Below, piece after piece: positions 9,580 to 55,085 of a stretch of DNA of 59,622 nucleotides. Positions within the stretch are counted from its first letter, which is position 1. The number at the start of each line of letters is the position of its first letter. The notes beneath the pieces were generated by a model that saw only the letters and a program-made list of their open reading frames with translations, was not told the origin of the DNA and did no database searches. The translations under genes were made by a program, and so were the position numbers. Source of the DNA: Nemertoderma westbladi (Eukaryota > Animalia > Xenacoelomorpha); the NCBI GenBank assembly GCA_032718475.1, contig JAUCBJ010006787.1, positions 1-59,622 of the forward strand, written 5' to 3'.

Positions 9580-9588
9580 GGGGGGGAG
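9580..9588 (+). other. Polypurine tract of element A
   Basis: GGGGGGGAG immediately 5' of the TGTAAGCGG LTR start defined by the solo LTR at 24951. Confidence 0.8.
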
Positions 9589-10075: not shown

Positions 10076-10079
10076 ACTT

Positions 10080-28455: not shown

Positions 28456-30915
28456 TACTACTACTACTTCTAGGTCGAGCGAACTCGGACAGTGGAAATG
28501 AGATCCTTCCAGGCTTCCCGATTCTCCATAGTTGTCGCAAATTCGTTATCAGTTCAGTATCCCTTTCAAGTTGATATGTTATGGCCGGTCGTCCACGACT
28601 ACGCTTTCCATGAGTTGGTTGCCAGAAAAGTAGATCTGGTATGACCTCGTCTTTACTTCGCCAACAGTGCCCATTGAATCTTAATCTGCGTTTGCGGAGG
28701 GTGGTTGATACAGGTGGTATTGTACCATAAAGCTCGGCGTTTGTCATGTGTTGTCTCCAGCTGATGTTTAGGGCTGCCCTTAGTAGTCTTGTGTAGCAAC
28801 CATCAATTCGTTGTTCAAGTGATTTAGTCAGTGTCCAGGTCTCACCCCCATATAAAAATACACTTTCCACTGTAGCTCGAAAGAACTTAGTCTTCAGGTG
28901 CCTGGAGAGATCTGATTTCCAGATGGTATCCATTTTTGATAGAGCTACCCAAGCCTTTGCTTTCCTAACTTCTATGTCCTTTTTGCTACTCTCTATCCAT
29001 GATCCAAGGTACTGGAAGTCATCGACCTTCCTTAGTTGATTATTATCAATGGTTGTCAAGTTTCCATCAACATTAAAGGTCATGAATTCGGTCTTTGTAG
29101 CATTTATATGCAATCCAACCTCCCTAGCAGCCCTCTCCACTCCATCCAGCAGAAGCTGTGCATCTGCTAGGGCATTAGAGAGCAGGGCGATGTCATTCGC
29201 AAAGTCGGTGTCTGTGACTGTAGTTGCCGGATAACTACTACTTCTGCGTTCTTGAAGTGTGAATCCCAGGTCTTCACCCTTTGTGGCCGTCCTCATTGCG
29301 TAATCCAGCACAATTACAAATAGTAATGGTGCTAATGTGTCACCTTGAGGTACGCCAGCCAGGATTGAGAAAAACTCAGTTTCACCATCTGGTGAGAGTA
29401 CCTGCGCTTCTGTGTCACAATATAACAATCCAATGCCAGCAACAATTACTTCTGGTATTCCATAAGCTCGTAGGATTTCAAGCATTTTACCTCTATGGAT
29501 GGAGTCGAATGCCTTCTTGAAGTCCACAAAAGTCATGACAGCGGGGAGATTCTTTGACTTAATTCCTTCAATCAGTCTCCGTAGTGCAAGTATCTGAGCT
29601 ATTGTTGATCTACTTGGTCGAAATCCGTTTTGGCTCTTACGCAGTAGTTTCTCTATGTGAGGCCTAATCCTATATAGAAACATTTTATTGTATATTTTGG
29701 CAGCTACCACAAGCAGACATCCCACGATAGTTTGTTGGTATGCCGAGGTCTCCTTTCTTGGGGAGAGGCTTTAGTTGAGCTTTAGTCCAAATTAGTGGTG
29801 GCTTTTCCCCTTTTAACATCCGGTTGCAAACATTCAATAATGGTCTGTTTAGCACTCCGGTTTTCCATACCTCCGCTGGGATTTCATCTAATCCACTCGC
29901 TTTATTATTGGACATGCTTTTAATGCTTCTTTGGAGTTCGGCAGGTGTGAAGTCCCCTGTTTCTATAGGTAGTGTCTTGTCATATATTTTCTTTGTAGGG
30001 CTGACCTCGATGTTTGGTGGCTGCCCAAGCAAGTTGCTGAAGTGATTTTTCCACTTCCCAACACGTTCTGCAGGACTATCGGCTTTGAGGCGCCCCTTTG
30101 CACAACTTTTCCGACCAGATACCTCATTTACACTTTGCCAGGTAAGTCTTGATTGTTGCTGTATGTGAGCAGTTGTAATTGCTTCAGTTTTATCCTGTAT
30201 GTACTTTTCCTGGCTGATGTTGTAGGCCAATTTAAGATCGTCCTTAGCTTTCTTAACCTTGTTAATGTTTTCGGTTGTTGGTTGTTCGGTTTTAACTTTG
30301 TAGGCTATCTTAAGATCTTCTCTCTTACAAGTAACCTCAGAGTTTTGCCATGATACATATTGTTTTCGTTTGGGTTTCTGGGGGATATGCCTCTTAGCTG
30401 ATTCCTTGTGGGCTGTTATTATATTCTGGTATATTGAATTGGTGGATTGGTCTTCATCCATTGACTGAAGTGCTTCAAAGCGGTTTTGAACTTCTACTGT
30501 ATAAGCATCCTTTACAGCATTGTCAGTTCTGAGTTTTTCCCAGTCATATTTGATTTGCTTGCTTGTCCTGGGTTTGCTGGCTCTCAAGCTGGGTCTGATC
30601 TCTGCAGTCACAATTCTGTGGTCCGAACCAATTAGGTTGAACGAGTTGTATGCCTCGCAGTTGATCATGCTGTTTCTCCACTTTTTGTTTATGAGGATGT
30701 TGAAAGGTCCATAGCTTCCCCTTACTCTTTTCGAATGTGTTGTTTGTTGGTATCAATTCACATTCTTCCATTAGGTCTAAAAGTAAGTACCCATTTCTGT
30801 TAGAACTGGTGTTATAGGTGTAACCCTTGATGTCTTCTGGGCCAATTTGGGCATTCAGGTCACCAGCAATGACTTTAACATTGTCTTTCGGAATGTCCTT
30901 TATAAGTCCAGTCAG
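28456..30915 (-). mobile_element. 5'-truncated RTE-like LINE (EN-RT pseudogene) with (AGT)n tail
   Basis: ORFs 30544-30936, 29685-30668 and 28421-29725 join across small deletions; QNGFRPSRS, FVDFKKAFDS, GVPQGD, DFAND (FADD with D>N), FQYLGS; 3' tail gaagtagtagtagtag. Confidence 0.95.
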
Positions 30916-30919
30916 TTCT

Positions 30920-33159: not shown

Positions 33160-33870
33160 TTATTATAATATACTACTAGGATCGGCATGCTGCATTGCAG
33201 CTGCATTTTTAAGAATGCTGTGCCGGCTTGTCAACAAAATTGCACCGCCACAACTCCCTATCACCCATGACATTTGCTAGATCATCCGCATCTTTAAGGC
33301 CAGTGTCCTTTAAGATGCGTCTCAAGAAAGTCATGGGCTGTCCACCATGCTTATTCACTCCATGAGGCTGCCAAAGTACAAGATTATGCACTGGCTGGTC
33401 CTCACGGCGAAAGCAATGTCCTGCAAAGCGGAGGCGATTTTGTTCTAGTGTCAAGCTTGGGGGAACCAATGAGACACCTTCAATGTTATATAGTGTCTGG
33501 TTGGAGATGTGTGCATTGTACTTGACACAATATACCCGGCGTAGCATTCTTGTGAATGTGCCATCCAGAGATTTGGTGTCCTCAGCAGTTAGAGCCCAGC
33601 ATGGACTCCCGTAGAGGAGTACTGGAACTACTGCTGCTCTAAATAATCGGACCTTAAGTTTCCGATTAATTCTAGGTTCCTTCCAAATCCTGGAAAGCCT
33701 ATTCAAGGCTGCCCATGCCTTTCCCTTACGTTTTCGAAGGTCCTCACCTGACTTCCGGATCCATGATCCCAGGTAACAGAAGTCGTCCACATGCTCAAGC
33801 AAACCATCCTTTGAGCTTATGCTCATCCGATCAGAGACTTGCTGAGGACTTTCAAAGTTAACTGTCAGAA
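33160..33870 (-). mobile_element. 3' end of a third RTE-like LINE family
   Basis: VDDFCYLGSWI..KAWAALNRLSRIW..LLYGSPCW..RLRFAGHC, homologous to the C-terminus of ORF 28421-29725. Confidence 0.85.
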
Positions 33871-34832
33871 TTTTGGTCTTTCTGGATATTATATTATAAT
33901 ATAACCAGCTAAAGACCCTCAATACTTTATTTTTTATATTTTTTCTATCATCTTTACAGTAAACACCTCATTAAGTAGTACCTTAGACAACACAAAACAC
34001 AAGATAAAGAAGCCTAATAGACCACAACAGGAGGGCGCCCGCAGTTACCATACTGTAGCTGTGTTTACAGTGTTGAGTTATTCAGTTATTGGAAATTCCC
34101 TTTATTTCATCCATTGGTTATTTTTAAAGTGTTTAATTTATGGTATATTATAGGAAGGGATCTAGGGGTCTTAACATCGAATGATAAGTTTATTTTACCG
34201 AAAATAACTTATCTTCCCTTCCTATAAATAAATGTATAATAACAAACACCTCGAAAAACACAGCTTGCCACCACATTGTTACTATCATTAATTTATGGTA
34301 ATTCCCAAGTACATAAAGCAACTAAATGTAGTTAATCTTAATAGTAAGTGGCTGCGTTTGATTCGAATAGCCTATACCCCCCTCACTTTTGAACTGATGG
34401 CGCTGGTGACATGTCGATCCACCCAATTGTAGTCTGCTGATGCTGAAGGTAATATCTTACTGTTTTAAACAACAACATAGCTCAAGATTGAAAAGTTAGC
34501 TCTACATGTATATCAATTTCCCCTGGCATTTGCACTCCTTTCCAAATTACTTGACTAAATAATAATTCCCCGTTTTCAATATAAATTAGCTAATAACATT
34601 TCTTAATGATGATAAAAAAAGGCGCAACTAACACTCAAACCACTTTTTAAGGTACCGCATACTTTTTAATACTAGCTAGCTTATGCATCACTAAGTCAGT
34701 GGCTCAAAATGACCACAAACACGTGATTAGTGGGTTTGAAAAATTAATTTGATTTACTTTAAAAAATAAGGGAAAGTAGCAGGTTACAGTGGCTGTTCGA
34801 TTGCTTTCGAGCATTATAAACGAGAATTTATT

Positions 34833-35972
34833 TGTACGCGCTTTTGAAGACCTTTAGCAGTTTAACCTGCCAAAATTTATATGTCTTTTGGTTTATAAAT
34901 AGACTTTAGAAAATGACAAGTATTTAATACCAAGAAACACAACATTAGCCGAAGCCAGCCTAGTGCGCGTCCATTCACCCGCTGGATATACCCGGGAGAC
35001 TGGATTCGGAGGGCTTAGATTGTTATTGCAGTGTAAGCTTACTGTATTATTCGATTGATCGTTAATAAATAATTTCTGACTAATATTATTCACTTTCGGG
35101 AAATATTAACAGTTCCTTTAGGACGTGGCGCTCTATCTAGGTAAACAGAGATATGACTTATACTAAACACAACGGTAAGTCGGTAAGGCTTATGATTCAC
35201 GTATGAGGCGCATTCTTTAGGAAATGCTTAGTTATCAGTCACAATCATGCACACTACCGGTAACACACAATAATGCACACTAATTTGCCGACCGTCAATG
35301 AATTTTATCATATAAAGAGAACAGCAATTGACTCATGTAGTGCTTATCAAATAGCATTAAACTCACTACAAACCACAATAATATAAGTCGCAATCGCTAT
35401 ATGTAACCCGTCTCTCTAACCTGTTCTCCAAATAATATTCAACCAACTGATACAAAATAATAACAACAGTAAAAAGCATTAAGACGGTAGGTTAAGATAT
35501 GATATGATAATGTATGTGCCGTTAAGACTGGACTGATAACAGTTATACGCTCTATAATCTAAGCCTACTAATGTTTCTTCTAAAGTCTGAAACGAATTGA
35601 CTCTAGAGCCGGTGTTCCTGGCCTAGATAGAAACAACACAACAGTATCAAGAAAAACAGTAAGACTGAACACTCCTAGCACGATCTGCCGAAAATCTCCA
35701 CATCGACAGTAAAAATCGCCCTGATTGGCTGTTAAGCTAAACAAAGAACCATGTGTCCAATGGCCGTTTCCATGTCAGCAACCAGCTGTTAGATGTTGTA
35801 ATCTGAATCATCAAGGCTAAGCTGTGCCAGAGTATTTGACGCATTGCGGGTTTTATGCCTAACCATGTCCGCCAAAGCACACATACAGAAGAATGACTTT
35901 TATGTCCGTTAAAACACCTATAATGGTACCTTGCGGGCGAGGGGACTGATTATATCCGCAAAAGCTTTTACA
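34833..35972 (-). repeat. 3' LTR (1140 bp)
   Basis: Direct repeat of 51001-52185; by eye about 7 substitutions, a 2-bp indel and a 43-bp deletion. Confidence 0.96.
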
Positions 35973-35982
35973 CCGCTCCCTA
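35973..35982 (-). other. Polypurine tract
   Basis: Sense strand TAGGGAGCGG directly precedes the TGTAAAAGC start of the 3' LTR. Confidence 0.7.
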
Positions 35983-36005
35983 ATATATGTAAATACTCTA
36001 AACAG

Positions 36006-37776
36006 TTAGTCTTTTTTGCGCGGACGGCGTTTACGCAGTTTTTTAAAGCTGGCCAGAGTCCTTTTCTCTTTGGGGCGAGCCACTTTACAAGGAGGGCTAT
36101 AACTCCTGGGTGAAGGGTGCAATATAATTGCATCAGAGGGTGTAGGATTATGGTCGGTGTATCCGCCAGTCGAAGTGCCGGGTTGATTGACATCAACGTC
36201 GGGGGAGAGGGGTCTAACGGCTTTGAGAGCGCGTTTTAAGACAGCCGCTCTTACGGGTCCTTTACGAGTGGTCTGAACGAGAGCCGTGGGTGGACCATAG
36301 GCAGTTAGAAACCTCCGGGGTTTAATGGTTCTTTCCAACTCGCGTTCGCGGGCTCGGTATTCGTAAGGCCGTCGATATACTTCCTGTAACTCGGGGTGTG
36401 AGTTAACAAATAAGTCTCCATAGTCCGGATCCTGACGGATATAATTGATTAAGTTATAGGAATGAAGGTCGCTAGGATTAACACTCCTGAGAAATTTGCG
36501 TACGAACTTGGTTGAAATACATTCTCCGACGTGCTTCAGTAGTTCGTAACTCGATATGCGTGATTTCTGTTCGACAGAAGCGAATAGATAAGGATGGAAC
36601 GCATAAATTCCTTCGTAAGCGCGTCCAGGATAATAACGATGGCGCGAATCACAATGTAAATCAGCGTTCGCTTCCCAAGCTCTGATGTAACGTAGTGTGA
36701 TCATTTCATCTATGCTTTCCAAATCGTGATTAAAAGGGCAATCGAAAGCGTCCCTTTAGTTGACAATGGTGACATTGAGTCATAAATTGAGGGCAAACCG
36801 CAAAAATGTGCAAGTTATTGAGTCTGCAATATGCGCAATAGATTTCCATCGTAGGTTGTTCTTGGAAATAGGAACAGCGGACGTTTGTGTCCATGGGCGT
36901 AACATGGTCTCTCGATGCGCATAACCGACAACGTTGCCTAGAAATATAGTTGGCATGTCGATAATCGTACGCAGTGAGACACTGTGGACCTTGATACCAT
37001 TCTAGGATGTAATCGTTGTCGCTGTTCCGGGGCGCGATAGGTTGAATCTCCTCAGATTCTAGGCATATTGGTTCGTCTTCCCAGTGCATAGCTGAGGTGG
37101 GCGTGTCTGTCTCTTCAAGTGGACCTATTGTCTGAATTTCCACGACCGAATAACCTGTGGGGATTCGAGGTCTTTGTATAACAGAGGAGTGCAAGTTCGA
37201 TATACAAATCTCTTTGAAAATGGCAAATCCAGCGCTATCTAACTTCTCTGCAGCTGAGTTTCTTAGGCTGAGCTTGATCAAAGCGTGGTCTTTAAATTGG
37301 CTATCCACGTTGCGGAACGGGGTTAAAAATTGCCGGAAACATTCGAAGCGGATGAATTTATTATGTTCATCTAGCTTAGCGAGTTTGGTCCCAAGTATTA
37401 ATGGATGGTCGCGTATAGTACGACTGCACACATCGGCTAGCCAACCGGCAAGTGCGGTGTTTTCAAATATCGTGTAGATAGCTAAGGAGGGACGGAGTGG
37501 AACACTCATGAAGCTATACACGGCGCCAGTTGCGGTCAATGGTCCATCAAAGTATAATCGAGAATAATGGTCTCCGTATACTTGTTGATAGTTGATGGGA
37601 TTTCCGACTTTGAAATTCCATCCGTATTCCTGAAAGGCAAGATGTCCGATGGAAGTTCGTTGCACCTTTGTAATGTTGCTGGACGTATTAGCATACATGG
37701 TGCGAAAGAAACCTCGGCCTTCTGCCCATGGAGCAATCAGCTGAGTATCTACGAAAGGATATGGGATATTTTCCAT
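36006..37776 (-). pseudogene. Accessory gene copy 3: C-terminal half of the exonuclease-like domain, CCHC knuckles and basic tail (two ORFs split by a frameshift)
   Basis: FVDTQ..SIGHLA..NFK..YQQVYG..IYTIFE aligns with copy 4 (CVDTQ..GIGYLA..DFKP..YNKIYG..IYVVME); CRLCASRDH, CAYCRLNNLHIFAVCP, CHHCQLKG[fs]AFDC; ends KKLRKRRPRKKD. ExoI/II not recognisable upstream. Confidence 0.75.
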
Positions 37777-38769
37777 ATTCCAAAAGTCGTTTGCCTAATA
37801 TGTCTTCCATTGATGGTAGTGGTAGAGAGCAGGGGAAGACCTATGTCGTATTCAGAAATATTCAGAAATACGATCTCAGTTCTCAGTTGGAGGATTCAAT
37901 CGTTCGAAGACTATCTCCAAATGAATTTATCCCTAGTGCGAGGAGGTAAACACCAGTTCAAGGATATGTTTGTCTCAGTTGTTCTACATAAGATTTATAT
38001 CTCTAATCATTGAGGGAGGTGAACAACCAGATTTATGACACATAATGGTACCAGTTGTTCACAAACAATCTGCGTGTCCTTTCAGTCCTTGTTTGTATCA
38101 CGGTTGTGGACTTAAGGAAATTATTGATGGTTGATTTTCTAATCAACAACGAGAGGGTGGAAGTTGATATCATAAATATCAACAGAATGTGACATGGACA
38201 AGAGGTGCGGACACCAATATGAGCATCCAGATTAACAGTAAGGGATGGGAGGTTTAGTAAGAGGCGGTATGATCAATACCACGATACGGCAATGATTGGT
38301 CGATCGTCTCCCAAAGCTCGGAGCGCGTTGGGAAGAGAAGGTGGGACGAAGTATGTTGTATTTTCAATAGCGATGTATAGAGTGATAAAGGGAGTAAAGA
38401 GGAAAAAGGATATATGGTAGTATCTATAAGATACCACAATGGACATGTTTCCGTCACATCATCATTCATTCTTGCCCTTTAATTGTGACACTGATCACAA
38501 TAATTACAGGAAAACGATGAAGGAAGAGAAAATTACAGCCTCCCGAAGGAGACCGCCCGCGAGCACCCGTGCCCCGGGGAAAACTATTCACATTATGGAC
38601 CCTGGACATTAACCCATGTCTCTTCTCCAGTGTTCTCCTCTATTTGTCTTTACTAGCTTTCTTCCACGTTCTATCTTTCGAGTTGTTTTCGAATAAAATT
38701 CTCGTGTTCCATTCTCGGTTCATCATGCCGACTCCGCTGGGTATGATATTTAAATAGAACCATTTCCCT

Positions 38770-39048
38770 TTAGGTGTCTCCATCGTCCGTATCATGTAAA
38801 TCGATAGGATGGCCGGTAGTTAAGAAGTCCATATACGTACCATTACGATTCGTATAGCGAGCGGTGAATTTTCGATAGTCCAATTCACGCGCAAGTTGCT
38901 CTTGGGACATCGGCGGTTCGATATAACGACCATCGTCCTCCGTAATGGTTGGATCGGCTTCACCGCGTATTAAGCTATCCACAAATGCTTGTAAAGGTAG
39001 AGTATATCGCTCCCTAATACCAAGATCATCTTCTATCAACTCCGTCAT
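38770..39048 (-). CDS. 92-aa ORF, possibly the N-terminus of the accessory gene
   Basis: ATG-initiated, same strand and upstream of copy 3, protein-like composition; no recognisable motif. Confidence 0.3.
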   Translation of the reverse strand: MTELIEDDLGIRERYTLPLQAFVDSLIRGEADPTITEDDGRYIEPPMSQEQLARELDYRKFTARYTNRNGTYMDFLTTGHPIDLHDTDDGDT

Positions 39049-40488
39049 ATCTGCTATCTGAGTTTATTAATATCAAAATGAGTTTATGTTTAGGCTAGCG
39101 GGCGTCGCTGCCTACCTCTCGTTGCCCCCGGACAGTGGGATTCTCAGCGCCGATGTACCGTCGTCGCGGTGTTTACGCCAACATGTAGCAACAGCACGAC
39201 AACGATAACCGGCACAAGTCACTCCACTGTCCGTCCCAAAGGCTTGGATCCATTTTAGGTTCTTTCTATAGGAGAGTTGGGTTACTTTTACAATTGCGAC
39301 TAGCTACTGTAAACATACTTTAGCAGTAACATTACACCTATAAACGCACAAATTCCACACAACTGTCACCAATTGTACACATACAGGCCATTTGTCCGTT
39401 AGTCAGTGCCTTCCAGAATGTCACGTTATTACTGTGTATCCTTGGATACTAACAGGGTGCTATGTATTCTCTATGCTATGCAATGGGACAAGCTTTCTAT
39501 TGTTCTTTTAACTTGCTTCTAATTCTAGCGTGGGTGTTGCTATGGTGACATTATGGAAAGCTAGCGGTAGAATTAGGGTAATTCTCATGCATACAGATCT
39601 GGAATGCTATTTAATAGTAATTCTTTAATTGTCAATATCCTCTTTATACATGATTTTATTAATTTTATTGGCTATTGACTATATGTCGGAGATTCTCGCA
39701 CTCTAATACACTCAATATGATGAATCTCCGCTCCCATGATCTATTAATTAATGGAATTTTGGGAATGTTATAAATTGCACAAAATGACAATTTATGAAAT
39801 TCATTTAAAATATGAATTTAAATTTATTCCCGTGAATTTTATTATTTGATGTTAATATTGACACAATTTTTATTCCAGAGCATGTCTGGCGACCTAGGAT
39901 CCTTAATTCTATAAAATTGTCTTTTAAGAGTATCGGTAAGTACTGCGATATCTTAATCGACTAGAAATTTTAAAGGATCTGAATTTTACAAAATTTTAAT
40001 AAATATTAAATTAATATTTAAGATGGGTACCAATTTATTCCAGAACTTGTCTGGGGACGTTAACCACTGATTCTAGAATTTGTCTTTCAAGTATATCGGT
40101 GGGTGCCGCGATATCTTAATCGACTAGAATTACAGATGGTCAAAAGGTTTAACAGATTTATTTGCGTTTTTACGCTACTGTTAGAGGGACATCACGCTAC
40201 TATATGTATTATTTAATATAAGGTAGAAGAGCAATATCGCACGAAGCAATGTCAGTGTGAAGAGGCAAGTCGTTTCCAAGGTCTACCCAGAGCTTGGTTT
40301 AGCCGAGACACGAGGATCTGAACTTTGCATTCCTAATACTCTGCCTACCAATAATACTTGAATATAGTAGTGGCTTTATTGTACTTTAATAAGTACAGAC
40401 ATTTCATCTTACTGTAGTCACGTATTTATAATATGATACGGACAGTAAGGAAAGAGAAAAATTATTTCTCGCCGTCACACTAAATATA

Positions 40489-43400
40489 TTATATATATGT
40501 AATTACGTAATAAACACTAATATATTGCACTAATCTACTAAATAATCTAAAATAACCTTCTACTAAATAAAATTGAATAAAAACGATTATAATAAAGTAC
40601 ATAATAATGTTCACATATAAAATATAATAAAATAGATAAAATAATATAGTCATACACCCACTCCAGACGTATATTGGGGAGTCCCTAGATGTTTGAGGAA
40701 TTAGGGAGGTGGTCGTGGGAAGAGTGTCTTGTCTTCCATAGTTTCCGGAGAGTTCTCTGTCTCTTTCCAGTAAACATAAACGACCAACTGGGCGGTTGAG
40801 TTGTTGCGTCTCAAAGATTATACCTGGCTTCTTGAAGTTACGCCGCATGACGACGAGTTCTACCGAGCGTACTAAACCATCATCCTAGATGTGAGTCTCG
40901 ATGATACGACCTGTCTGCCACCGTTTACGTGGGAGGTCTGGATCTACAATAAACACCATATCTCCGGCGCTGACGTTTTCTTGCTGCTCAAACCACTTAG
41001 TTCGAAGTTGTAGCGTGGGCAGATAATGTTTCTCGAAATGGTCAGCGAAACGACGGGATAGCAACTGCATAAGTTGCCAAGTTCGACGGCAGTATTCGTC
41101 TCTGTCGGCAATCTCCGATCGTGGGAGCATGGCTACAGGTTTCTTCAGTAGGTAGTGCGCGGGTGTTAGCGCTTCCAGGGAATCGGGACTCGATGAGACT
41201 GGCATAAGCGGTCTCTCGTTGAGATAGGCAGCTATTTCCTCCATTAATGTCCGCAAAAGTTCGTCGGTGAGATACACGCGGCATGGCACTATAAAGTGAA
41301 ATGCGGTCTTGACACTTCTAATTAATCTCTCCCAACTTCCTCCCCACCAAGGGGCGTCGGCGGCGTTGAAGGTCCAGCTAGACGCTGTTATCCTTAGCTG
41401 ATCGTCCACCTGTCTTTGGTTCCAGTCCTTCACGTAAGCCTGTATTTCGTTGTTGGCACCAATGAAGTTCGTTCCCTTATCCGATCTCATGGTATTACTC
41501 GTCCCGAAGCGAGCGATCTGTCGGCGTAAACTTAATACGAAGCTGTTGGTAGATAGATCGTTCACCATATTGAGATGGATGGCTCTACAAGTCATGCATA
41601 CGAAGATGACACACCATCTCTTGACTATAGTCCTAGCACGATATACTTCAATAGGGCCAAATAAATCTACACCAGTATTAGTAAAAGGTGGTTCATAGAA
41701 GCTTACTCGTTCCCTAGGTAATTCTGCCTCTCGCTGTGTTAAAGGCCTACTGAATGCTTTCCTACAGGGTATGCAGTTCCTAAGAACTTGGTTCAGAGCT
41801 CTACGGGGTTTATCAAAATAATAGCGAGTTCGGATTTCGCTAAGAACTCGTTCTCTACCAGCATGATAAAGTTTGCTGTGAACATCTACAATCATCTTGA
41901 TTTGTACTTCAAGATTTCTAATGAGTATGGGGAATTTAGTGTCAAAGGATAATGGCGCATTGGTGAGCCTTCCTCCAACACGTATTAACCCATCTATCAT
42001 TGTGCTAGAGAAGCGATCCCGTAAGCGCATCTGCGGATTTCTCAACAACAGGAAATACTTATCGGAATCTTCATAGCATTGCAGGAGTCTCAGTATCTGC
42101 TTATTGGTTTCTTCATGCTCCTGGTAACTGATTTTTTCCTTTAGAAACCGGTCGGATGTCTTATATTTGGGTAAATTTTTAATAACATGAACTTGCGCAG
42201 ATGTCAATGGAGCGGTATCACTAATGGTCTTCGTCCTGGAGTAGTGATGATGAAAACATCTCCTTAAATATGTGACGGCTTTACAGAGCCGATTCCAGGA
42301 ACTGTAGTGATGCATTGCTCTCTGCAGCAGGGGTGAGATTCCTTGCGAGACGTCTGGTATTCCAGATTTCCAATCTCTATCTCTAATTTCCACAACAGAC
42401 TTAATTGTGGCGAGGGATTGTGGATCCGAAGCATCATTTCCGGAAGTATGTAATACAGATAGATCGATCGTCGGTTTAAATAACTTCGATTTACTCGCCC
42501 GGGTTTTAGATTTGACTGTCTCCGCTCCCTTGGCTTGTCTAATCTCTGCCGTAGTAAGGTGAGGAGGCCATTCATCCTCTTCCTTGCTCAGGAAGTCGGG
42601 TCCACTCAACCAGTCTGGAGTATCTATCAGTTCCTGTGGAGTCGCTCCCCTGGAGGCGATATCGGCTGGATTAATCGTACCAGGGCAATGTCTCCATTGA
42701 TCTATCTTTGTGCGACTAAGAATAATAGCTACCCTGTTAGTAACAAAAACGCTGAACTGACAGACTTCATTGGTTATATACTCTAACACGAGTAAAGCGT
42801 TGGTCCAATAAACAGTTTTCTCCAGTGGATAGTCGATTTGTTCTGTTACGTTCCGGCCGATGGCTGTAGCGTATAAAGCCGCTTTTAACTCCGCTCGAGG
42901 AACCTTTAACTTGTTGTTAATCAATGCCTTAGAGGTAACCAAGGCGACTTTGATTCCATCCGGAGTTTCGACTCGCAGATATGCTACTATACCTATTCCC
43001 ATGTCGCTGGCGTCTCCAAACACATGGAGTTGATAGGAATACGTAGGAAGAACATGACCAAAATATGCACGGGAAATTACAAAGCTCTCGATGGCAGGTA
43101 GAGAATCTTCCCATTTCATCCACTTCTTTAACAGTTCTCCCTTAAGTGGATCGTCCCATGAGTGGTTTTCAAGCCACATTTGTTGTACTAAACTCCGAGC
43201 AATCAATATAACTGGGCTAATAAATCCCAATGGGTCGAAATAAGTGCTCAGGATACTTAAACAAATCCGTTTGGTCCGAACTGGATTATCTCGCTGTTTT
43301 AGCTGAAAAAACAGGATATCTCTTTCAGTGTCCCACTTCAAGCCAAGCGTCTTGGTTTCTGGAAGATCGTCCTTTATTAAGTCTAGGTCTTTCGTTCCTC

Positions 43401-44907
43401 GGTCTTCTACCGGTATCGCTTCCAGAAACTCACGGGAGTTGCTAGTGAATTTTGTCAGTCGAAATCCACCTCTTTTCAAACACTCTACCGTTCCTTTCGC
43501 GACATCAATGGCTTCTTCTTCTACTGATGGAAGGGACCTTAAATTATCGTCCATGTATATATTACGCTTGATGTTGTCTATCACCTCTTTTGAGAAGGCG
43601 TCTCGGTTGTCATTCGCAGTGGTCCGCACCACGGAGCAGGCGTTGGAAGGGCTTGATATGATCCCAAAAGCCTGGATGGTCATCCAGTACTCTACCGGTT
43701 TCTGGTTGAGATCTCCTTCAGGCCACCACAGAAATCTCAGGCTGTCTCTATCTCTATCCAGCGCCTTGACTTGTAAGAACATTCCTTCTATATCGGAGGC
43801 GAACGCGATGGAATATTGTCTTAATCTTAAAAGTATTCCCAACAAAGATTGGAGTAAGTTGGGTCCTGGTAACAACTCGGAATTAAGGGATTGGCCCATA
43901 TATAGAGCGGAGCCATCGAATACGACTCGTACTTCGTGGGGTTTACCGGGTTTGGGAACGTAATGATGTGTTAAGTAATACGTTCTCTCAGTCACTGGTG
44001 TTCCTTCCGGTACTCGCTCCGCGTATCCCTTTGTTATAAATTTCTTCAACTGAGTTTGGTACATTTCTTTAGCTGAAGCATTAGCCGTAAGGCGTCGATG
44101 TAATTGAGCGATTCTTTTCTCTGCCAAGGGTCTGTTATTTATAAATCTAGGTTCTCGTTTTCGAAATGGTAGGCCGATTTCATATCTACCTTGGTCCTTT
44201 AAAAAACGTGTAGTTGTTTCCTGGATTTGCTTGGGTCTTTCTTCTTCTATCGATAGGGCCTTATCATATGAATTGGGCTCTACCAGTTCTTGAGTAAAGA
44301 ATCGTACGGCGAGTTCGTCCCGAGTTCTAGTGTTGTAGCGCTCTATCTCATCATTTAGTTCGTCATTGTAATCAATGGGTCCCGATGGGCGAATCAGTTG
44401 ACATAGGTTCACCTGGTTTTTCCACGTTTTGTTTTCTGTAAGTAGGTCGATTGTGTTCTCTTCATCGAAGAGTTGGTAGATGTCGTCATTATCTGAGGAG
44501 TATGGTGTTCCCTCAGTTAGTTCTTCCACCCCACTGCTCTCCACTTCCCAATCGTTTACTTGGTATATTCGTTCTTGTGGCATTCTCTCTTCGAGAGTTT
44601 TGCGGGAAGGGCCAGTAAAGTACCAACCTACTCTAGTTCTTACCGCATAGGTTTGCAGTGGCTGCGGTTGAGCAGGCCGTTTCTCCAATGTCTCGAGCGC
44701 CTCATGCGCGTTTTGGCCGATGAGTATTTGCACTCCAGGATAATCTGTCTGGAATCGAGGTATCTTAAGATGTTGGATGCTCTCATCCTCGTCCCAATTA
44801 TAAAGGTCTGCTTGGGTAGTAGCGAAGTTCTTTATAGCCACCATTTTTACCGACCTTATACCTTGTGCTCCTAATTTATCCTGGGGGGTGGACACTGGAC
44901 AACACAC
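40489..44907 (-). pseudogene. pol: Bel/Pao pol (RT, RNase H, integrase) with an in-frame TAG at 40885-40887
   Basis: VRVVFDGS, SLNSELLPGP, DIEGMFLQV, YMDD, FDPLG, FGDAS, RAEL, WTNA (usual D is N), NPADIASRG, HHCC, GVDLFGP / SDKGTNF / WERLI; reading continues in frame after the stop as DDGLVRSVELV..RPVGRLCLL. Confidence 0.95.
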
Positions 44908-47059
44908 CTACATAGTAGTCTGCCGTTAGGGTAGATTTCCAAACCTGCATAATTCCTGACATATTCAATTTAGTCCGGAATTTGGGTTGTCCAGCAAAGA
45001 TATCTTCGGCTAGTTCTTGATCGATGAATGTTCCTGTGCTGCCGGAGTCAAGGAGGGCGTTCACTATGTAACTTTTGTTAGGACCGTGAACTCTTACCTG
45101 CACTACAGGAAATTCTCTGATTCCTACGTTGGAAGTTGGAGCTTTCCAAGATGGTTGTCTGGCAAAAGTAGTTGGGGGAAACTCATTGTCGGTGTCCTTT
45201 TCGTAAGTAAGTGCTCGATACACTGCGGTATTTATTAGGTAACAGGATTCGTTGGCGTCGGAGAATTCGTCAGTATAGAATCCTTCCATCTCAGACTCTT
45301 GATCAGTGTCATTTACATCACTGAATTGGACATGTAGTTCGGGCTCACTTACCTGATTCGGGTTGTCTCGTTCGAACTCACTGTGTAACAAGATGTGATG
45401 TTTCGCGCCACACTTTGCACACTTTACGTCGGAGTAACAGGTTCGCCGTTGGTGTCCTGATCTGAGGCAATTATAGCATAACCGCTTATCCCACATGACT
45501 GCACGTTGGTCTACAAGGGATTTCTTTAGAAATTCAGCACACGCACTCAAACGGTGGGTCCCGTCGCACAGCGCACAGTTAGGTTTTATGTTACTCACTT
45601 TACCTTGGGTAACCTGATGCACTCTCGTTCTTTCTTCGGGCTTTCTTCCGTGCATTCTGTTAGGAGACTGAGGAGGGGTCTTGGCAACCTGTTCTCTCCT
45701 ATCTTTGGTTCGAGCCTTGTATTTACTTACGTCCTTTGAGGTTTTGCTAACGTAGTAAGATCGGTCAGTGTCTTTCCCGCTGTCCTCTTCTTGAGAAGCT
45801 TGGCTTTCGCCATCGTCAGTGTAACACACTGGTGTTACTCTTCTCCTAGAAACGGGTTTCTCACTTACCTTATTTTCCGATGTTTTCTCTCTGGACTGCT
45901 TGATGAGTTGTAGTTTTACTTCACCATCTAAGAAGGACATGAGATCAGCCATGGTAGGACTTCGTCGTTGCTGCTCATTCATATACAACACTTTCTTGTC
46001 CCAACGTGTACATACTCCACCCTTTGGTAAAGTAGAGACTACGGCTCCAATAACCATGGAACTCTGATATTCATGAGACTTACCTAACCAGTCCAATTGT
46101 ATACAGATCTCCTGAATCTCATCGGAAAACTCTATAATCCCGCTACTAAGGAAGTTTCTGGGGGCTACTAATTTTGCATACAAATACTTAGCTATGTTAT
46201 CCTTGTTACCATACCTGATGTTTAATGTATCCCAAACTTGTCTTAATCCATCTGGGTGTCCAATGAACTTTAACGCCATTAACTTGGGAGGTCCTTCCAA
46301 GCACTTGATGAGGAATCTAAGTTTCTCTCCGTTAGATAGTACAGAGTTCTGTATGCTATCTTTGTAATATTCATTGAAAGGTAACCATTTCATCTCATCA
46401 CCATTGAATTTGACGATTTCTCCCACTTTAACCGCTTGGCGGGCTTCTGTTCTAGCCATCTGACGCGTAAAGCTTTCTTGGGCCATCGTGTTATTTAATA
46501 TCGAATTATCGGTATATGAATTTCTCGGATTATTATCAGGTCCATAGGGAATATCATTAACAACAGGTTTATAATCACCCTTAATAGGGTTTGCTATAGG
46601 AGTTTCTACTTCACTAGCAGTATAGATGCGTGTAGGCTCCACACCTTGCGCATGTAATACTTCAGACCTAACAGGTTGACACAATGTTACTGGGGGTATT
46701 GGTATACCCTTTTGTATATTGACTAATTTGTCGCGTTCTAGCGCGATACTTTGCTGCACTTCTTGCAATTCTGCCCTACCTTCCCTTACTGTTCCCTTAA
46801 GTTGGTGGACAGTCTCCTGCATCTGTCCGAGCAGGAGGTTCATCCCCCGCCGTCCCTCCTCTACCCACTCGACCGCCGAAGCGGGAGTCGCCAACATTGT
46901 AGCGGGCCGACGCTGGACGACGGGAGACAAATCTTTGATTTCTCTCTCTGCTTCCAGGACAGGGATATTCTCATGGACTGTTCTACCGGCTACAGGCAGT
47001 GTAGTACTGTGTAAAGGGAATTTAGAGTTAAGCTCTGGAAGTACAGGGGTCTCTAGCAC
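44876..47059 (-). CDS. gag: Bel/Pao gag core, three zinc knuckles and aspartic protease
   Basis: KFNGDEMKWLPF..EKLRFLIKCLEGPP..LNIRYGN; CALCDGTHRLSAC, CYNCLRSGHQRRTC, CAKCGAKHHILLH; ALLDSGSTGTFI. Removing one C from the C6 run near 44885 restores the frame to pol. Confidence 0.93.
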   Translation of the reverse strand: MLETPVLPELNSKFPLHSTTLPVAGRTVHENIPVLEAEREIKDLSPVVQRRPATMLATPASAVEWVEEGRRGMNLLLGQMQETVHQLKGTVREGRAELQEVQQSIALERDKLVNIQKGIPIPPVTLCQPVRSEVLHAQGVEPTRIYTASEVETPIANPIKGDYKPVVNDIPYGPDNNPRNSYTDNSILNNTMAQESFTRQMARTEARQAVKVGEIVKFNGDEMKWLPFNEYYKDSIQNSVLSNGEKLRFLIKCLEGPPKLMALKFIGHPDGLRQVWDTLNIRYGNKDNIAKYLYAKLVAPRNFLSSGIIEFSDEIQEICIQLDWLGKSHEYQSSMVIGAVVSTLPKGGVCTRWDKKVLYMNEQQRRSPTMADLMSFLDGEVKLQLIKQSREKTSENKVSEKPVSRRRVTPVCYTDDGESQASQEEDSGKDTDRSYYVSKTSKDVSKYKARTKDRREQVAKTPPQSPNRMHGRKPEERTRVHQVTQGKVSNIKPNCALCDGTHRLSACAEFLKKSLVDQRAVMWDKRLCYNCLRSGHQRRTCYSDVKCAKCGAKHHILLHSEFERDNPNQVSEPELHVQFSDVNDTDQESEMEGFYTDEFSDANESCYLINTAVYRALTYEKDTDNEFPPTTFARQPSWKAPTSNVGIREFPVVQVRVHGPNKSYIVNALLDSGSTGTFIDQELAEDIFAGQPKFRTKLNMSGIMQVWKSTLTADYYVGVLSSVHPPG

Positions 47060-48723
47060 AGGAGTGGCTTTGGGAATGAATGAATGACAGGCCTAATTAT
47101 TTCAGGCTCATCAACTATAGTAGGGAGTCTTTTGACCTTAATAATTTGGTCTGTAGGTTCTATACTACTTAAGTCTGTGCTAGCTAGTTGTCTTCTAACA
47201 GCTGGGGGCAAATCAGGCAATTTGTGACGGTAAGATGTTTTTCTACGCCTGCTTAGACGAGATCTATTTCCTCCGCCTTCAGGATCGGTGGTTTCGCTTT
47301 CCTCCGATGATGTGTATCCCTGGCGTTTGGGAGTAGATCTTCTCATCATCTGCATGTGACTAGCAGTTAACTGTTTATTTATGTTGTCTTGCGTCTCTTG
47401 CAGATTTTCCAACTCTAGTTGGGTAGTCTCCTCAGACGCTCTCCGTTCTGCTTCTGCCACCGCTGCTTTTCTTTCTGCTTCTGCTTCTGCCGCCGTTGCT
47501 TTTCTTTTTTCTTCTGCTTCTGCCGCCGTTACTGCTGCTGCCTTTCGGTCCTCTATCCGTTTTTTCTTTACTTGTTCTTCTTGGACTCTAGCGAGGCGGA
47601 GTTTTTCATCAAATTTAGCTTGGTTCGCAGCTAACATTTCCGCATCGATTGAGTCCAACACAAGCTTGGTTCCTTCACTATTGGGGCGAAGTCCAGCCAG
47701 TCGTCTCCTCAACTCTTCATCACCCAAGAAGCGTTGATAGTCTGACAGATAGATGTCTATGGCGTCTCTCGAGGGCGGCTTCTCTGCTGCTGTCTCTTCG
47801 CTTTCCACTTGAGAAAGGGTGGCATCGGTTGGTTCTTCATAGGTTGGTCTCTCAGCCAGCTGGGATTTCCACTGGGCCGTTTCTTGAACTTTGAGACCTA
47901 CCCGCTGGAACCAAGTCTTGACAGCAACCTGCAGCGATGTGTCCTGTCTTCTTTTGGAAGTTTCCTCAAAGGCTGATAGGATTAGTCTAATGCGTAGGGT
48001 TCTTTCGCGTACTTGATAAAGCAGCTCTTCCTGCTCTTGAGGTCCTTGGGGTTGTCGAAACAGTTGTTCTTCCAATCTCTCTAAGGAGCCGAAGAATCCC
48101 TGCACATATCCTGCTGCCGACCTCTTCCAAACAGCTGGATCCATCGTATCTTTAGCCACTCCCATCCTGTGTATATCTTCCCAAGTAGCTTCGGACAAAT
48201 CTAACGGGAGTCCGGGTCCGGGAAAGTACCATTGTGACTCGACAATAGACATCAATTCTTCCCTGGCGTATCCCGCATAACTATCTTGGGTCGCTCGCTT
48301 ACTTCTCGCCCAATCGACTTGGTGTTCCTCCACCGCAATCAATATAGTAGTTAGCACTGCGGCAGGAAGGGTGAGAAGGGGATCCGAGTAGGCTGTAGCC
48401 GCCATCTGCACTCCGCGTTCGGGGGTCAGCTCTACAGTATCCGAACTACTGGAGCTATCGGGTCGCTGGGAACGAGTTTCTTGAATAGGATGTTGTTGCT
48501 GTTGGGCAGCTGCTTCCTGGTTCCGTTTGACCTGGGCCCGAGTGCCGATGATAGACCTACGGTGTTGGATTAGCCTAGGGTCTGATACTACTACTGGAGG
48601 GATGACCTTTCTTTCAGTAGGAGGTGAGCTGAACCCCTTTCTTAATCGCTCCACACTCCTATCTGTGTCACAGATGGTTGTATCGATTAGACTGTCTGAC
48701 AGGGTTTGCTGGGTGTCAGACAT
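47053..48723 (-). CDS. N-terminal Gag extension / ORF1, 556 aa, coiled-coil rich
   Basis: Long ATG ORF directly upstream of gag and overlapping it in a different frame; AEAEE/KRKA helical repeats; no recognised domain. Confidence 0.75.
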   Translation of the reverse strand: MSDTQQTLSDSLIDTTICDTDRSVERLRKGFSSPPTERKVIPPVVVSDPRLIQHRRSIIGTRAQVKRNQEAAAQQQQHPIQETRSQRPDSSSSSDTVELTPERGVQMAATAYSDPLLTLPAAVLTTILIAVEEHQVDWARSKRATQDSYAGYAREELMSIVESQWYFPGPGLPLDLSEATWEDIHRMGVAKDTMDPAVWKRSAAGYVQGFFGSLERLEEQLFRQPQGPQEQEELLYQVRERTLRIRLILSAFEETSKRRQDTSLQVAVKTWFQRVGLKVQETAQWKSQLAERPTYEEPTDATLSQVESEETAAEKPPSRDAIDIYLSDYQRFLGDEELRRRLAGLRPNSEGTKLVLDSIDAEMLAANQAKFDEKLRLARVQEEQVKKKRIEDRKAAAVTAAEAEEKRKATAAEAEAERKAAVAEAERRASEETTQLELENLQETQDNINKQLTASHMQMMRRSTPKRQGYTSSEESETTDPEGGGNRSRLSRRRKTSYRHKLPDLPPAVRRQLASTDLSSIEPTDQIIKVKRLPTIVDEPEIIRPVIHSFPKPLLC

Positions 48724-50059
48724 GTTTAGTTATACAGTTGAATGCTTACTGCTATAGTTACAGTTAAAGCAAGTCTAGTAATTCAGTATGACCGTTGGCC
48801 TAGTACCGGTAATTTATTGCAGTATATTAGAATACCGGTATACACTTATAGTATATATAAGTATTGTAAACTAGGTTTGTCACAGAGTACCGGTATATAA
48901 TTTTAGCACAAATATATATAAATATATAATAGGCCTATCGTGAATACCGGTATGCAGCTTACACTTATAGTATATATAAGTATAATTATGAACTAGAATT
49001 AATTACAGAATACTGGTATGATTTCAGCCCAAATTTATAGAAATAAATATAATAAGCCTATGGTAAATACCGGTATGTCAATTATTTTAGAATAATTGAA
49101 TTTCTGAATATTTTAGGGTTACTTGGTTACTTTAACTTACTTTATTACCATTATTTAAGCAGTAGTCCAACTGATATTGAGACCTAGTTGTTGTATGGCA
49201 GGCCTACTATTTATAAATCGTTTGAGTTGATTTATAATATTTATATACCCGTTTAAAATGGGTTTTGTCAATATTTGAAATAAATGTTATTATTTCTGGG
49301 GGAAGTCACTACACAGAAGCTGTGCGCTCTCAGTGAAGTGCTACTTATGGGACACTAAAACAGATAATTCTAATTTACCTAAGTTACTTAATACTACAAA
49401 TTACTTACGATACGGGTGAGATTAAATCTCTAATTAAACACAACAAAATATTACGTACGAAATTGTTAGGGTAATTTTACAGGAAGTCTACAAACCAGCC
49501 TAACAAAGGGTTAGAATTCTGGTTATTACAACGGACAGGGTACTACGGTATTTGAAAATAATAAGTAGTAGTAAATATATTGCACTGTCCAGATAGGAAA
49601 ATACCACCGCCTGATGACCTATAGCCGTATCGCTATAGGTACTACGTTATGTATCACGGAGTGTTCCTACCTGGAAGTTAATTACCGCGGACTACCAGAT
49701 CCAACGTGCCTATTAACCACTTTACAACACAAATATACTGCCTACACACTAATTACCTTCGGAAAGCACTGTACATTAAACCCTAAATTAGGTACAAGTA
49801 CTGGTACAACAAATAATCGGTAGTTAAATATACTTGAACAGTTAAAAGAACCACGGCATCTGCTGGAGTGACCGGAGCACAAAGTCACCAGTCTTTACCT
49901 ACGCCAAGCAGCCCGTGTAGTACCGGGGTTAATTTAACTATAACGGTATGTGTAACAAGCACAATTACTGTAGGAATAAACTTGGGGACATGAATGTTGC
50001 GAATAATCGCATAAACTCTGAATAATAAATATTACGCTACCCATACAGAATACTCAAAC

Positions 50060-50600
50060 AAAATACAAACCAAACGCTGGCAGACTACCACCAAGCCTAA
50101 ATAAACTACAGTATGTGCAGATTCCAAAATGGTTAGTTAGTATGCGTTCTAACACGGTAGTACGACTTATTCTTTAGGAGGGGATTGACCTTACAGCTCT
50201 GGCTGCCCCAACTTACTAACTGGCACTTTATCAGACAAACTCTACACACGCAGCAATCTCTTCAGACCTAATAATAGCTAGACAACAATCCAGCCTACAA
50301 AATATCTGAGTAATAACTATTACGGTACCTGAACAGACCACACAAACAAACACAGGCCAAAACGCTGGCAGAATACTGTCAAGCCTAAATAAACTACAGT
50401 ATATGCAGATTCCAAAATGGTTAGTTAGTATGCGTTCTAATACGGTAGTACGACTTATTCTTTAAGAGGGGATTGACCTTACAGCTCTGGCTGCCCCAAC
50501 TTACTAAACTGGCACTTTATCGGACAAACTCCACACACGCCGCAATTCCTCCAGACTCAACAACAGTCAGACAACAGTCCAGCCTACAATTATCTGAACA
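50060..50600. repeat. ~298-bp tandem duplication in the element leader
   Basis: aaacgctggcaga..caagcctaaataaactacagtat..cagcctacaa occurs at about 50072 and 50370; single copy in the related leader at about 19270-19520. Confidence 0.9.
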
Positions 50601-50774
50601 ATCTGATCAGACTTACACGTCTTCAGCTCAATATTAACTTACATGTAAATAAAACCGACAGAAATAAGTAAAATCTCAATAAAAAAACCAGGGCGGCCAT
50701 TCCCTGATTAAGTACTAAGACCTACCGATATACAATAATCAAAATCGAATAATACTAATGTACTTATACTGGAA

Positions 50775-50938
50775 GTACCGGTTAGGACAGTTGGGCCTAC
50801 AGACCTACAGCAGTACCGATTCTGGCAGTTGGGCCTACGGACCTACAGCAGTACCGGTTCAAGCAGTTGGGCCTACGGACCTACAGCAGTACCGATTCTG
50901 GCAGTTGGGCCTACGGACCTACGGCAGTACCGGTTCAG
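50775..50938. repeat. 38-bp minisatellite, 4 units alternating between two variants
   Basis: cagttgggcctac at 50788, 50826, 50864 and 50902; units end alternately in gattctgg and ggttca(a/g)g. Confidence 0.93.
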
Positions 50939-50989
50939 GTTTACCGGTTGACGGTACTTTCAACTTTATTGCTTACTGCAATAAAGACA

Positions 50990-51000
50990 ATAACTGTTAT
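50990..51000 (-). promoter_or_regulatory. Putative non-tRNA (self-priming) primer-binding site
   Basis: Sense ATAACAGTTAT abuts the 5' LTR, has no TGG, and is exactly complementary to sense ATAACTGTTAT at 51749-51759; the same relation holds for 19005-19015 and 18210-18220. Confidence 0.7.
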
Positions 51001-52185
51001 TGTACGCACTTTTGAAGACCTTTAGCAGTTTAACCTGCCAAAATTTATATGTCTTTTGGTTTATAAATAGACTTTAGAAAATGACAAGTATTTAATACCA
51101 AGAAACACAACATTAGCCGAAGCCAGCCTAGTGCGCGTCCATTCACCCGCTGGATATACCCGGGAGACTGGATTCGGAGGGCTTAGATTGTTATTGCAGT
51201 GTAAGCTTACTGTATTATTCGATTGATCGTTAATAAATAATTTCTGACTAATATTATTCACTTTCGGGAAATATTAACAGTTCCTTTAGGACGTGGCGCT
51301 CTATCTAGGTAAACAGAGATATGACTTATACTAAACACAACGGTAAGTCAGTAAGGCTTATGATTCACGTATGAGGCGCATTCTTTAGGAAATGCTTAGT
51401 TATCAGTCACAATCATGCACACTACCGGTAACACACAATACTGCACACTAATTTGCCGACCGTCAATGAATTTTATCATATATAAAGAGAACAGCAATTG
51501 ACTCATATAGTGCTTATCAAATAGCATTAAACTCACTACAAACCACAATAATATAAGTCGCAATCGCTATATGTAACCCGTCTCTCTAACCTGTAGTGTA
51601 TCAAGAAAATTGGGAAATTTGGGTTCTTTATAGATGTTCTCCAAATAATATTCAACCAACTGATACAAAATAATAACAACAGTAAAAAGCATTAAGACGG
51701 TAGGTTAAGATATGATATGATAATGTATGTGCCGTTAAGACTGGACTGATAACAGTTATACGCTCTATAATCTAAGCCTACTAATGTTTCTTCTAAAGTC
51801 TGAAACGAATTGACTCTAGAGCCGGTGTTCCTGGCCTAGATAGAAACAACACAACAGTATCAAGAAAAACAGTAAGACTGAACACTCCTAGCACGATCTG
51901 CCGAAAATCTCCACATCGACAGTAAAAATCGCCCTGATTGGCTGTTAAGCTAAACAAAGAACCATGTGTCCAATGGCCGTTTCCATGTCAGCAACCAGCT
52001 GTTAGATGTCGTAATCTGAATCATCAAGGCTAAGCTGTGCCAGAGTATTTGACGCATTGCGGGTTTTATGCCTTACCATGTCCGCCAAAGCACACATACA
52101 GAAGAATGACTTTTATGTCCGTTAAAACACCTATAACGGTACCTTGCGGGCGAGGGGACTGATTATATCCGCAAAAGCTTTTACA
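51001..52185 (-). repeat. 5' LTR (1185 bp)
   Basis: Direct repeat of 34833-35972, TG...CA ends, flanked by the TSD. Confidence 0.96.
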
Positions 52186-55060: not shown

Positions 55061-55085
55061 TCATCACAGGGACCCAACAACCTAA

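Follow-up and report, generated by a model that had tools for sequence, protein, structure and literature searches.

According to excerpts from Rodriguez, Kenefick and Arkhipova (2017; PMC5408684), a DEDDy-type exonuclease gene was found as the third open reading frame (ORF3) of the Juno and Vesta long terminal repeat (LTR) retrotransposons of bdelloid rotifers, as well as in the Athena/Terminon elements. The idea of a DEDDy ORF3 in retroelements was repeated in passages of PMC6431247 and PMC6338049, and a passage of PMC3706591 attributed DEDDy domains to the Dada DNA transposons also. The ORF3 of the rotifer Juno/Vesta and Athena elements was the closest precedent for the locus described here, which occupied positions 36006-39048 of a 59,622-nt stretch of DNA from Nemertoderma westbladi (assembly GCA_032718475.1, contig JAUCBJ010006787.1, positions 1-59,622, forward strand; hereafter the window). 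The DNA was of animal type and retroelements were abundant in it. We propose that the locus was the ORF3 of a young high-copy Bel/Pao element and that it was broken in the window copy. The gene family was likely derived from an RNase D/WRN-type (DEDDy) exonuclease and also carried zinc knuckles of the Cys-Cys-His-Cys (CCHC) type and a basic tail resembling a nuclear localization signal (NLS). We gave this reading a probability of about 0.6.

Similar to the rotifer ORF3 as presented in those excerpts, the gene was an extra one placed after pol and was probably related to the RNase D/WRN/Mut-7-type exonucleases. One type of ORF was apparently shared by unrelated element lineages in both cases, and neither a transmembrane segment nor a coiled coil was present. 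The same source noted a Cys-His-Cys motif in Vesta2 and Vesta5, which can be compared with the knuckles found here, and stated that the rotifer ORF3 was recognised only through sensitive profile-profile search. On the other hand, Bel/Pao elements were not among the carriers named in the excerpts, and in the present gene the domain was followed by three CCHC-type knuckles, a tail domain of about 200 aa and a basic end. Moreover, the DEDDy homology here was only a lead, and the window copy was without the half of the domain that holds the ExoI and ExoII motifs, whereas the rotifer ORFs were described in PMC5408684 as keeping the catalytic DEED residues. A search of the full-text literature, with subscription journals and Repbase notes outside its scope, found no report of an exonuclease-type ORF3 in Bel/Pao elements.

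The locus was located inside an LTR retrotransposon of 17,353 bp on the minus strand (34833-52185). Its 5' LTR (51001-52185) and 3' LTR (34833-35972) were 98.8% and 99.5% identical in two blocks found by blastn, with one indel of about 40 bp between the blocks. Both LTRs started with TG and ended with CA, and the target-site duplication TTATT was read on the left (34828-34832) and on the right (52186-52190) of the element. Next to the 3' LTR was a purine-rich stretch (35973-35985, minus strand) whose reverse complement ended in ..AGGGAGCGG and which may serve as a polypurine tract. The gag frame (44876-47092, minus strand) combined a DUF1759 domain (Pfam, E 2.3e-11) and two CCHC knuckles with an aspartic protease. 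It was followed by pol (40489-44907, minus strand) with reverse transcriptase (RT), Peptidase_A17, integrase and DUF5641 regions, most of which was a 1340-aa ORF (40885-44907) matching Peptidase_A17 (E 1.7e-35), Integrase_H2C2 (E 3e-07) and DUF5641 (E 5.7e-13) in Pfam. The LTRs with the target duplication, the protease-RT-RNase H-integrase order and the DUF1759 gag were those of Bel/Pao, and the element was a young member of this group with a very high copy number.

Other copies of the element (siblings) were surveyed in sequencing runs, six of seven of which contained part of the stretch; the runs came from four studies and carried two species labels. Sibling contigs from four runs were aligned to 35973-49900 and scored in 30 bins, and contigs from three of the runs (X3, X4 and X5) were aligned more finely to 35973-39300. 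All 30 bins were covered in the four runs, which represented four studies, and the summed depth was very high. Therefore, the family was high-copy and the accessory region was part of it. The gene was carried by siblings, and in the window copy it was enclosed by both the LTRs and the TTATT repeats; it was therefore cargo of the element. A reading of this DNA made from the letters only (the sequence-only reading) had likewise treated the gene as cargo of a full-length element bounded by target-site duplications, and the LTR pair, the TTATT repeats and the presence of the region in siblings bore this out; an absence of the region from siblings, which would have refuted that reading, was not observed.

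About 4.5 kb separated the end of the pol frame (40489) from the 3' LTR, as that reading had measured. On the minus strand, this region contained in 5' to 3' order about 1.4 kb without a frame, ORF C, about 1 kb without a frame, ORF A and ORF B. ORF C (38773-39063) encoded 97 aa of acidic character, had its first Met near 39048 and showed high sibling depth; it was possibly the N-terminal part of the accessory gene. The stretch after it (37795-38772) had no long frame, stood at the position expected for the domain's N-terminal half and was rare in siblings. A search for an inserted repeat at 37.8-38.7 kb revealed neither terminal repeats nor a duplication, and there was no second copy of this stretch in the window. 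Similarly, no duplicated leader shared by the region upstream of gag and the spacer between pol and ORF3 of the element was found.

ORF A (36733-37776) encoded 348 aa counted from its first Met, which preceded the VDTQ motif by nine residues. It contained the C-terminal half of an exonuclease-like domain with the motif chain VDTQ, IGHLAF, NFK, Y..VYG and IYTIFEN. An acidic linker came next, and after it knuckles of the form CX2CX4HX9C (residue 283) and CX2CX5HX4C (residue 314), both complete, and the start of a third one. This third knuckle opened with CHHCQLKG in ORF A, was severed by the change of frame (36722-36776) and resumed as ..DAFDC in ORF B (36009-36755; stop codon 36006-36008), a 249-aa frame that differed in phase from ORF A and overlapped it by 23 nt. 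The spacing of the knuckles was near the retroviral type C-x2-C-x4-H-x4-C, with the third beginning CX2CX4, and Pfam zf-CCHC gave no score. After the end of the third knuckle, ORF B continued with about 200 aa without a known fold and finished with the NLS-like tail, where 14 of the last 26 residues were K or R; its end was 33 nt short of the purine tract and the 3' LTR. The motif chain, the knuckle cluster and the basic tail were thus all present as the sequence-only reading had placed them.

ORF A opened halfway along the exonuclease-like domain: its alignment with RNase D started at residue ~95 of 210. Neither ExoI (D-x-E) nor ExoII (D) motifs were found in ORF A or anywhere else in the element. 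Additionally, a profile built from the N-terminal halves of three other exonuclease-like genes in the window (copies 1, 2 and 4, described below) recovered those three only, with the best other window match at E 2.1, in keeping with the earlier impression that ExoI and ExoII were unrecognisable here. From these comparisons, the N-terminal half appeared to be missing rather than diverged.

The siblings provided insights into what had happened upstream of ORF A. Along 37860-38636, the depth in X4 was 5-24, in contrast to 800-14,000 on both flanks, and in X3 it was 5-25 thousand compared to 160-740 thousand on the flanks. In these two runs, about 0.9 kb upstream of ORF A was 10-1000 times rarer among siblings than its surroundings, so most siblings carried other sequence or nothing at this place. 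Ahead of the ORF A Met, the similarity to siblings faded over the first ~100 nt (bins 37749-37970). ORF A itself was common among siblings, with a depth of 170-250 thousand in X3 that was comparable to the knuckle region. The commonest variant seen in X4 was a deletion of 37086-38689 that joined 37085 to 38690 with six other letters between them and eliminated the ~230 codons at the beginning of ORF A; the depth of its joint was 2918 compared to ~3800 beside it. The same joint was present in X5, and matching loose ends were found in X3.

Relative to the window copy, sibling contigs also had a short indel right at the junction of ORF A and ORF B (five contigs in X3, one in X4 and one in X5), and loose contig ends were located at 36750 (12 in X3, three in X4 and one in X5). 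Therefore, the frame break was a lesion of the window copy or of a subfamily and not a feature of the gene; the earlier proposal that it fell inside the last knuckle was confirmed. Another lesion was located in pol, where the frame was interrupted by a stop codon (40885-40887) 131 codons ahead of its end and ran on past it to 40489. Since nearly all sibling contigs differed from the window copy inside this codon, the pol of the window copy was damaged, and the stop was private to this copy or to a small subfamily. Four features fitted a decayed copy: the stretch ahead of ORF A that was rare in siblings, the broken third knuckle, the pol stop and the abundant deletion variant.

Single-letter differences between ORF A/B and the siblings were synonymous in 11 of the best-supported 23 listed. 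With a neutral synonymous share of 0.22-0.30, this corresponded to P 0.006-0.049, depending on the weight given to transitions, and it was a weak hint that the gene may have been under constraint while the family diversified. In run X5, which carried a different species label and may derive from RNA although no run was listed as such, contigs matched ORF A/B (window 36169-38218) at 85-99% identity, and one alignment of 192 nt had two differences. This suggested either a closely related host or an element that had been shared recently.

The leads to an exonuclease ancestry of the domain came mainly from copy 2. In a language-model search of the Atlas collection, the best score for copy 2 was 0.95, and 25 of 30 matches belonged to a set of 3'-5' exonuclease clusters in which 34% of members carried PF01612 (0.94, with 173 shared features). 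When copy 2 was aligned with residues 1-210 of E. coli RNase D, only 1 of 1000 shuffles reached its score (p 0.003, as one of four RNase D tests under a gap-lenient scheme of our own choice). The collinear pairs were LDDEG/LDTEF (ExoI), LVDNT/LIDTQ, CHKPMEW/CGRPMSW and RYVLQEDW/EYAAADVW (ExoIII), and the order of LDDEG, LVDNT and YVLQED was that of the cellular DEDDy enzymes (RNase D, WRN, Mut-7 and Rrp6; PF01612). Residues 3-127 of ORF A were aligned with residues 95-194 of RNase D at p 0.064, starting with PYPFVDTQLIA opposite PQPLIDTQILA.

A four-copy alignment compared with RNase D by hhalign was collinear over ExoII (IIKIGSDIKAD of copy 4 opposite ITKFLHAGSEDLE), VDTQ/IDTQ and the ExoIII region. 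ORF A retained PxPFVDTQ and the Y-x3-E of the ExoIII position, which read IYTIFEN in ORF A, RYVLQED in copy 2 and IYVVMES in copy 4; in the hhalign result, the YG motif was paired there instead. In contrast to the cellular enzymes, the last acidic residue was E rather than D, a long insert separated the K..W motif from ExoIII, ORF A was without ExoI and ExoII, and no copy reached any Pfam score. Judged by the Atlas match and these alignments, the domain was probably of DEDDy exonuclease ancestry.

The three other genes were decayed, exonuclease-like and accompanied by Cys/His clusters: copy 1 (3870-6190, plus strand), copy 2 (15208-17378, plus strand) and copy 4 (56360-57625, minus strand), the last with a frame at 56360-57244 that contained three stops. 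An open frame of 226 aa in copy 2 (15516-16196) carried the motifs LDDEG, KVGLAIRDD and YVLQED. For comparison with ORF A (copy 1 at ~3.9-6.2 kb, copy 2 at 15.2-17.4 kb, copy 4 as its frame 56360-57244), Smith-Waterman scores were tested against shuffles and stop codons were read as X. The clearest link was with copy 4, where a score of 56 was obtained and the best of 300 shuffles was 49 (p 5e-4); with lenient gaps, a single shuffle in 1000 scored as high. This alignment spanned VDTQ, IG.LA, FK and YG and continued through to IYTIFEN/IYVVMES. The N-terminal half of copy 4 was in turn clearly similar to that of copy 1 (p 5e-7; tblastn E 0.001) and weakly similar to that of copy 2 (p 0.01), and copies 1 and 2 gave p 0.67 in the same half. 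Moreover, VD of VD[TNQ] made up two of the three invariant columns in a four-copy MAFFT alignment, and copies 1, 2 and 4 had an invariant D in common within motifs like IIKIGSDIKAD.

Direct comparisons with the remaining copies were less successful. Trimmed pieces of ORF A and copy 2 gave p 0.033 and p 0.23, the piece 4572-5018 of copy 1 gave p 0.83 against ORF A, and residues 71-215 of ORF A compared with the three N-terminal halves gave p 0.55-0.94. Only self matches were below E 0.1 when ORFs A, B and C were searched against the window by tblastn. In our reading, the first ~125 residues of ORF A shared ancestry with the C-terminal half of the copy 4 domain and were tied to copies 1 and 2 only via copy 4. 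For the remainder, the claim that all four were the same gene was one of architecture alone, namely knuckles after the domain and a place after pol. Of the earlier claim that the element shared its gene with copies 1, 2 and 4, the part on copy 4 stood, and the rest was not recovered by the direct tests against copies 1 and 2, by leave-one-out profiles or by ORFs B and C.

The sequence-only reading had also held that two Bel/Pao families shared the gene. A second family was indeed present in the window, since copy 2 was located 1 kb downstream of another Bel/Pao pol whose RT was 34% identical to that of the element; the claim fell short at the placement of copy 2 within the LTRs of that family. 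In this second family, a block at 8163-8950 recurred at 14274-15233 with 72-83% identity and without TG..CA ends. It was ~0.8-1 kb long and contained internal tandem repeats of ~82-91 nt; one occurrence preceded gag and the other separated pol from copy 2. Both block copies finished at an ATG, and copy 2 started where the second one ended. Candidate identities for the block were an LTR, a duplicated leader and an internal promoter. If it were an LTR, then copy 2 would be outside the second Bel/Pao element.

A number of results weighed against our reading. Under the gap-lenient scheme, the RNase D tests of copy 4 and copy 1 gave p 0.23 and p 0.52, and the hhalign comparison had a probability of 0.83% (P 0.067). 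ORFs A and B and copies 2 and 4 all lacked a Pfam match with E up to 10. No exonuclease family was found in NCBIfam, where the sole match was a sub-threshold amidotransferase to ORF A (14 bits, cut-off 570), and searches of the PDB by sequence and by profile returned nothing relevant. No significant match was found among all 1845 translated window pieces with a profile made from 79 Enterobacterales RNase D sequences; ORF A was fifth with E 11, and copy 2 was outside the 25 matches listed. An exhaustive HMMER search of ORF A against 1.84 billion representative proteins found two matches, and both were low-complexity repeats. AlphaFold2 modelled ORF A alone with a mean predicted local distance difference test (pLDDT) score of 30.8 and, given a four-row alignment, copy 2 with one of 36.0.

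The links between the copies were affected as well. ORF A compared directly with copy 2 gave a non-significant p 0.11, and none of 15 tests of ORF B and ORF C against pieces of the other copies was significant. Leave-one-out profiles missed ORF A, which appeared at E 1.6 from copy 4 alone and was outside the 12 matches listed for the profile of copies 4 and 2. As for the notion of a single broken copy, the indel at the ORF A/ORF B junction accounted for 16,696 of 35,330 in X3 depth; since about half of the depth was without it, the broken form was perhaps multi-copy itself. The conclusion that the upstream part was probably replaced or rearranged in the window copy or a small subfamily was drawn from depth alone.

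Several further searches were empty. No relatives of ORF A were obtained by a word-indexed search at near and shorter lengths, none was confirmed among 49 and 4 pattern matches in metagenome and viral contig scans, and the Atlas search with ORF A gave no usable match. Copy 2 had no protein relatives at E up to 1. The protein collections searched thus contained no relatives from which a deep alignment could be built. An attempt to broaden the RNase D template by a contig scan gave only Enterobacterales sequences that were 78-100% identical, and the E. coli record yielded just rnd and polA. Both pLDDT means were below 40 and too low for a fold search.

The best-surviving alternative, which we nevertheless considered unlikely, was that the ORF3 of this family is in its usual form a truncated exonuclease relic that lacks ExoI and ExoII, acting as a catalytically dead nucleic-acid binder like Maelstrom or EXD1, and that the frame break alone was private to the window copy. 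ORF A had its own Met shortly before VDTQ and 348 open codons, its region was abundant in siblings, and its differences together with those of ORF B were in synonymous excess. RNA-binding dead DEDD relatives are known, and excerpts of PMC5408684 presented Maelstrom and EXD1 as catalytically inactive DEDD relatives of the PIWI-interacting RNA pathway. Similar to these proteins, the gene would combine an exonuclease-derived domain without the full catalytic set with zinc and RNA binding by Cys/His residues. However, Maelstrom keeps the whole fold and ORF A only half of it; the likeness was one of description only.

On its own, one half of a DnaQ-type domain would hardly fold, which was a general argument against such a protein. 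In addition, the sibling similarity was lost just upstream of the ORF A Met, the commonest variant seen in X4 removed some 230 codons from the start of ORF A, and the window copy bore further lesions. The sequence-only reading had favoured a catalytically dead binder; given the missing N-terminal half, the rarity of the upstream 0.9 kb in siblings and the pol stop, this suggestion gave way to that of a decayed copy. A truncated dead copy fitted better than a dead binder.

We regarded as slightly less probable again the possibility that ORF A/B was an orphan accessory gene, with a gag-like nucleic-acid chaperone bearing nucleocapsid-type knuckles, that was unrelated to exonucleases and shared the motif chain by chance or convergence. 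It would agree with the empty results of every curated profile and structure-sequence search, with the lack of significance of the RNase D and leave-one-out profiles and with the p 0.064 that was all ORF A achieved with RNase D; knuckle clusters are also generic, and the gag of the element had two of them. However, the alignment of ORF A with copy 4 beat 300 of 300 and 999 of 1000 shuffles and went on to the IYTIFEN/IYVVMES end, and the N-terminal half tied copy 4 to copies 1 and 2. Copy 2 brought both the PF01612 lead from Atlas and the RNase D alignment, and VD of VD[TNQ], the only pair of columns that was invariant in all four copies, aligned with LIDTQ of RNase D.

A more far-reaching scenario, which we considered improbable, was that an old ORF3 lineage of exonuclease plus knuckles had become shared cargo of several deeply diverged Bel/Pao lineages in this animal and persisted here as a shortened, catalytically dead nuclear RNA binder directed against the small-RNA defence of the host, in the manner of a Maelstrom/EXD1 counterpart.

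Envelope-like ORF3 genes are found in some Bel/Pao elements, such as the nematode Cer and Tas. An envelope-like gene of the kind known in Bel/Pao and Ty3/gypsy elements was hardly credible here: only the location of the gene, after pol and ahead of the 3' LTR, spoke for it, and it was rejected because ORFs A and B had no hydrophobic or transmembrane segment (maximal 19-residue Kyte-Doolittle means 1.1 and 0.39), with no signal-peptide-like start seen on reading the sequence and with knuckles and a basic tail that pointed to an intracellular nucleic-acid binder instead.

Returning to the reading of a broken exonuclease-derived ORF3, its architecture of an RNase D/WRN-like domain, three nucleocapsid-like knuckles and a basic tail suggests a nucleic-acid binder acting on 3' ends. 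An intact member of the family would hold RNA or single-stranded DNA by its knuckles and might trim or cap the 3' ends, and the basic tail could bring it to the nucleus. Possible targets would be the RNA or complementary DNA of the element itself or small RNAs of the host. The authors of PMC5408684 discussed the same options in the excerpted text and left the activity of the rotifer ORF3 untested. The window copy would yield no working protein.

Extra genes of LTR retrotransposons reveal what aids the spread of an element beyond gag and pol. The window copy itself was an ordinary decayed copy. If the exonuclease ancestry is true, the family would represent a third group of retroelements with such a gene, in another animal and fused to nucleocapsid-like knuckles. 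The gene would then be present in at least two and perhaps four lineages with just 20-30% identity, which would speak for an exchange of nuclease genes among retroelements from a common pool. It would also be a candidate for 3'-end processing or for interference with small RNAs.

Several additional observations concerned the coding frames of the element. The gag-protease and pol frames shared 32 nt (44876-44907), and a short indel at 44889 was present in ~35-65% of the sibling depth in all four runs. Since only part of the depth carried it, the gag-protease/pol junction varied within the family. Upstream of gag, a frame of 558 aa (47053-48729, minus strand) overlapped it by 40 nt; it was charged, rich in Ala, Glu, Lys and Arg, and looked helical by eye. 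Neither a Pfam family nor a knuckle was found in this frame, which may extend gag by a long N-terminal part.

Other repeats were also found in the window. The stretch 1-1166, cut at the window start, was LTR-like and 81-88% identical to the LTR of the element, and it probably came from a related subfamily, as a solo LTR or a partial one. Downstream of copy 4, tandem units of ~100 nt (54716-55305) had open frames on both strands. Two copies of a long interspersed nuclear element (LINE) were present on the minus strand (1256-2902 and 29314-30919), were 96-98% identical and contained endonuclease/phosphatase and RT frames, and a third LINE RT fragment was located at 33209-33967.

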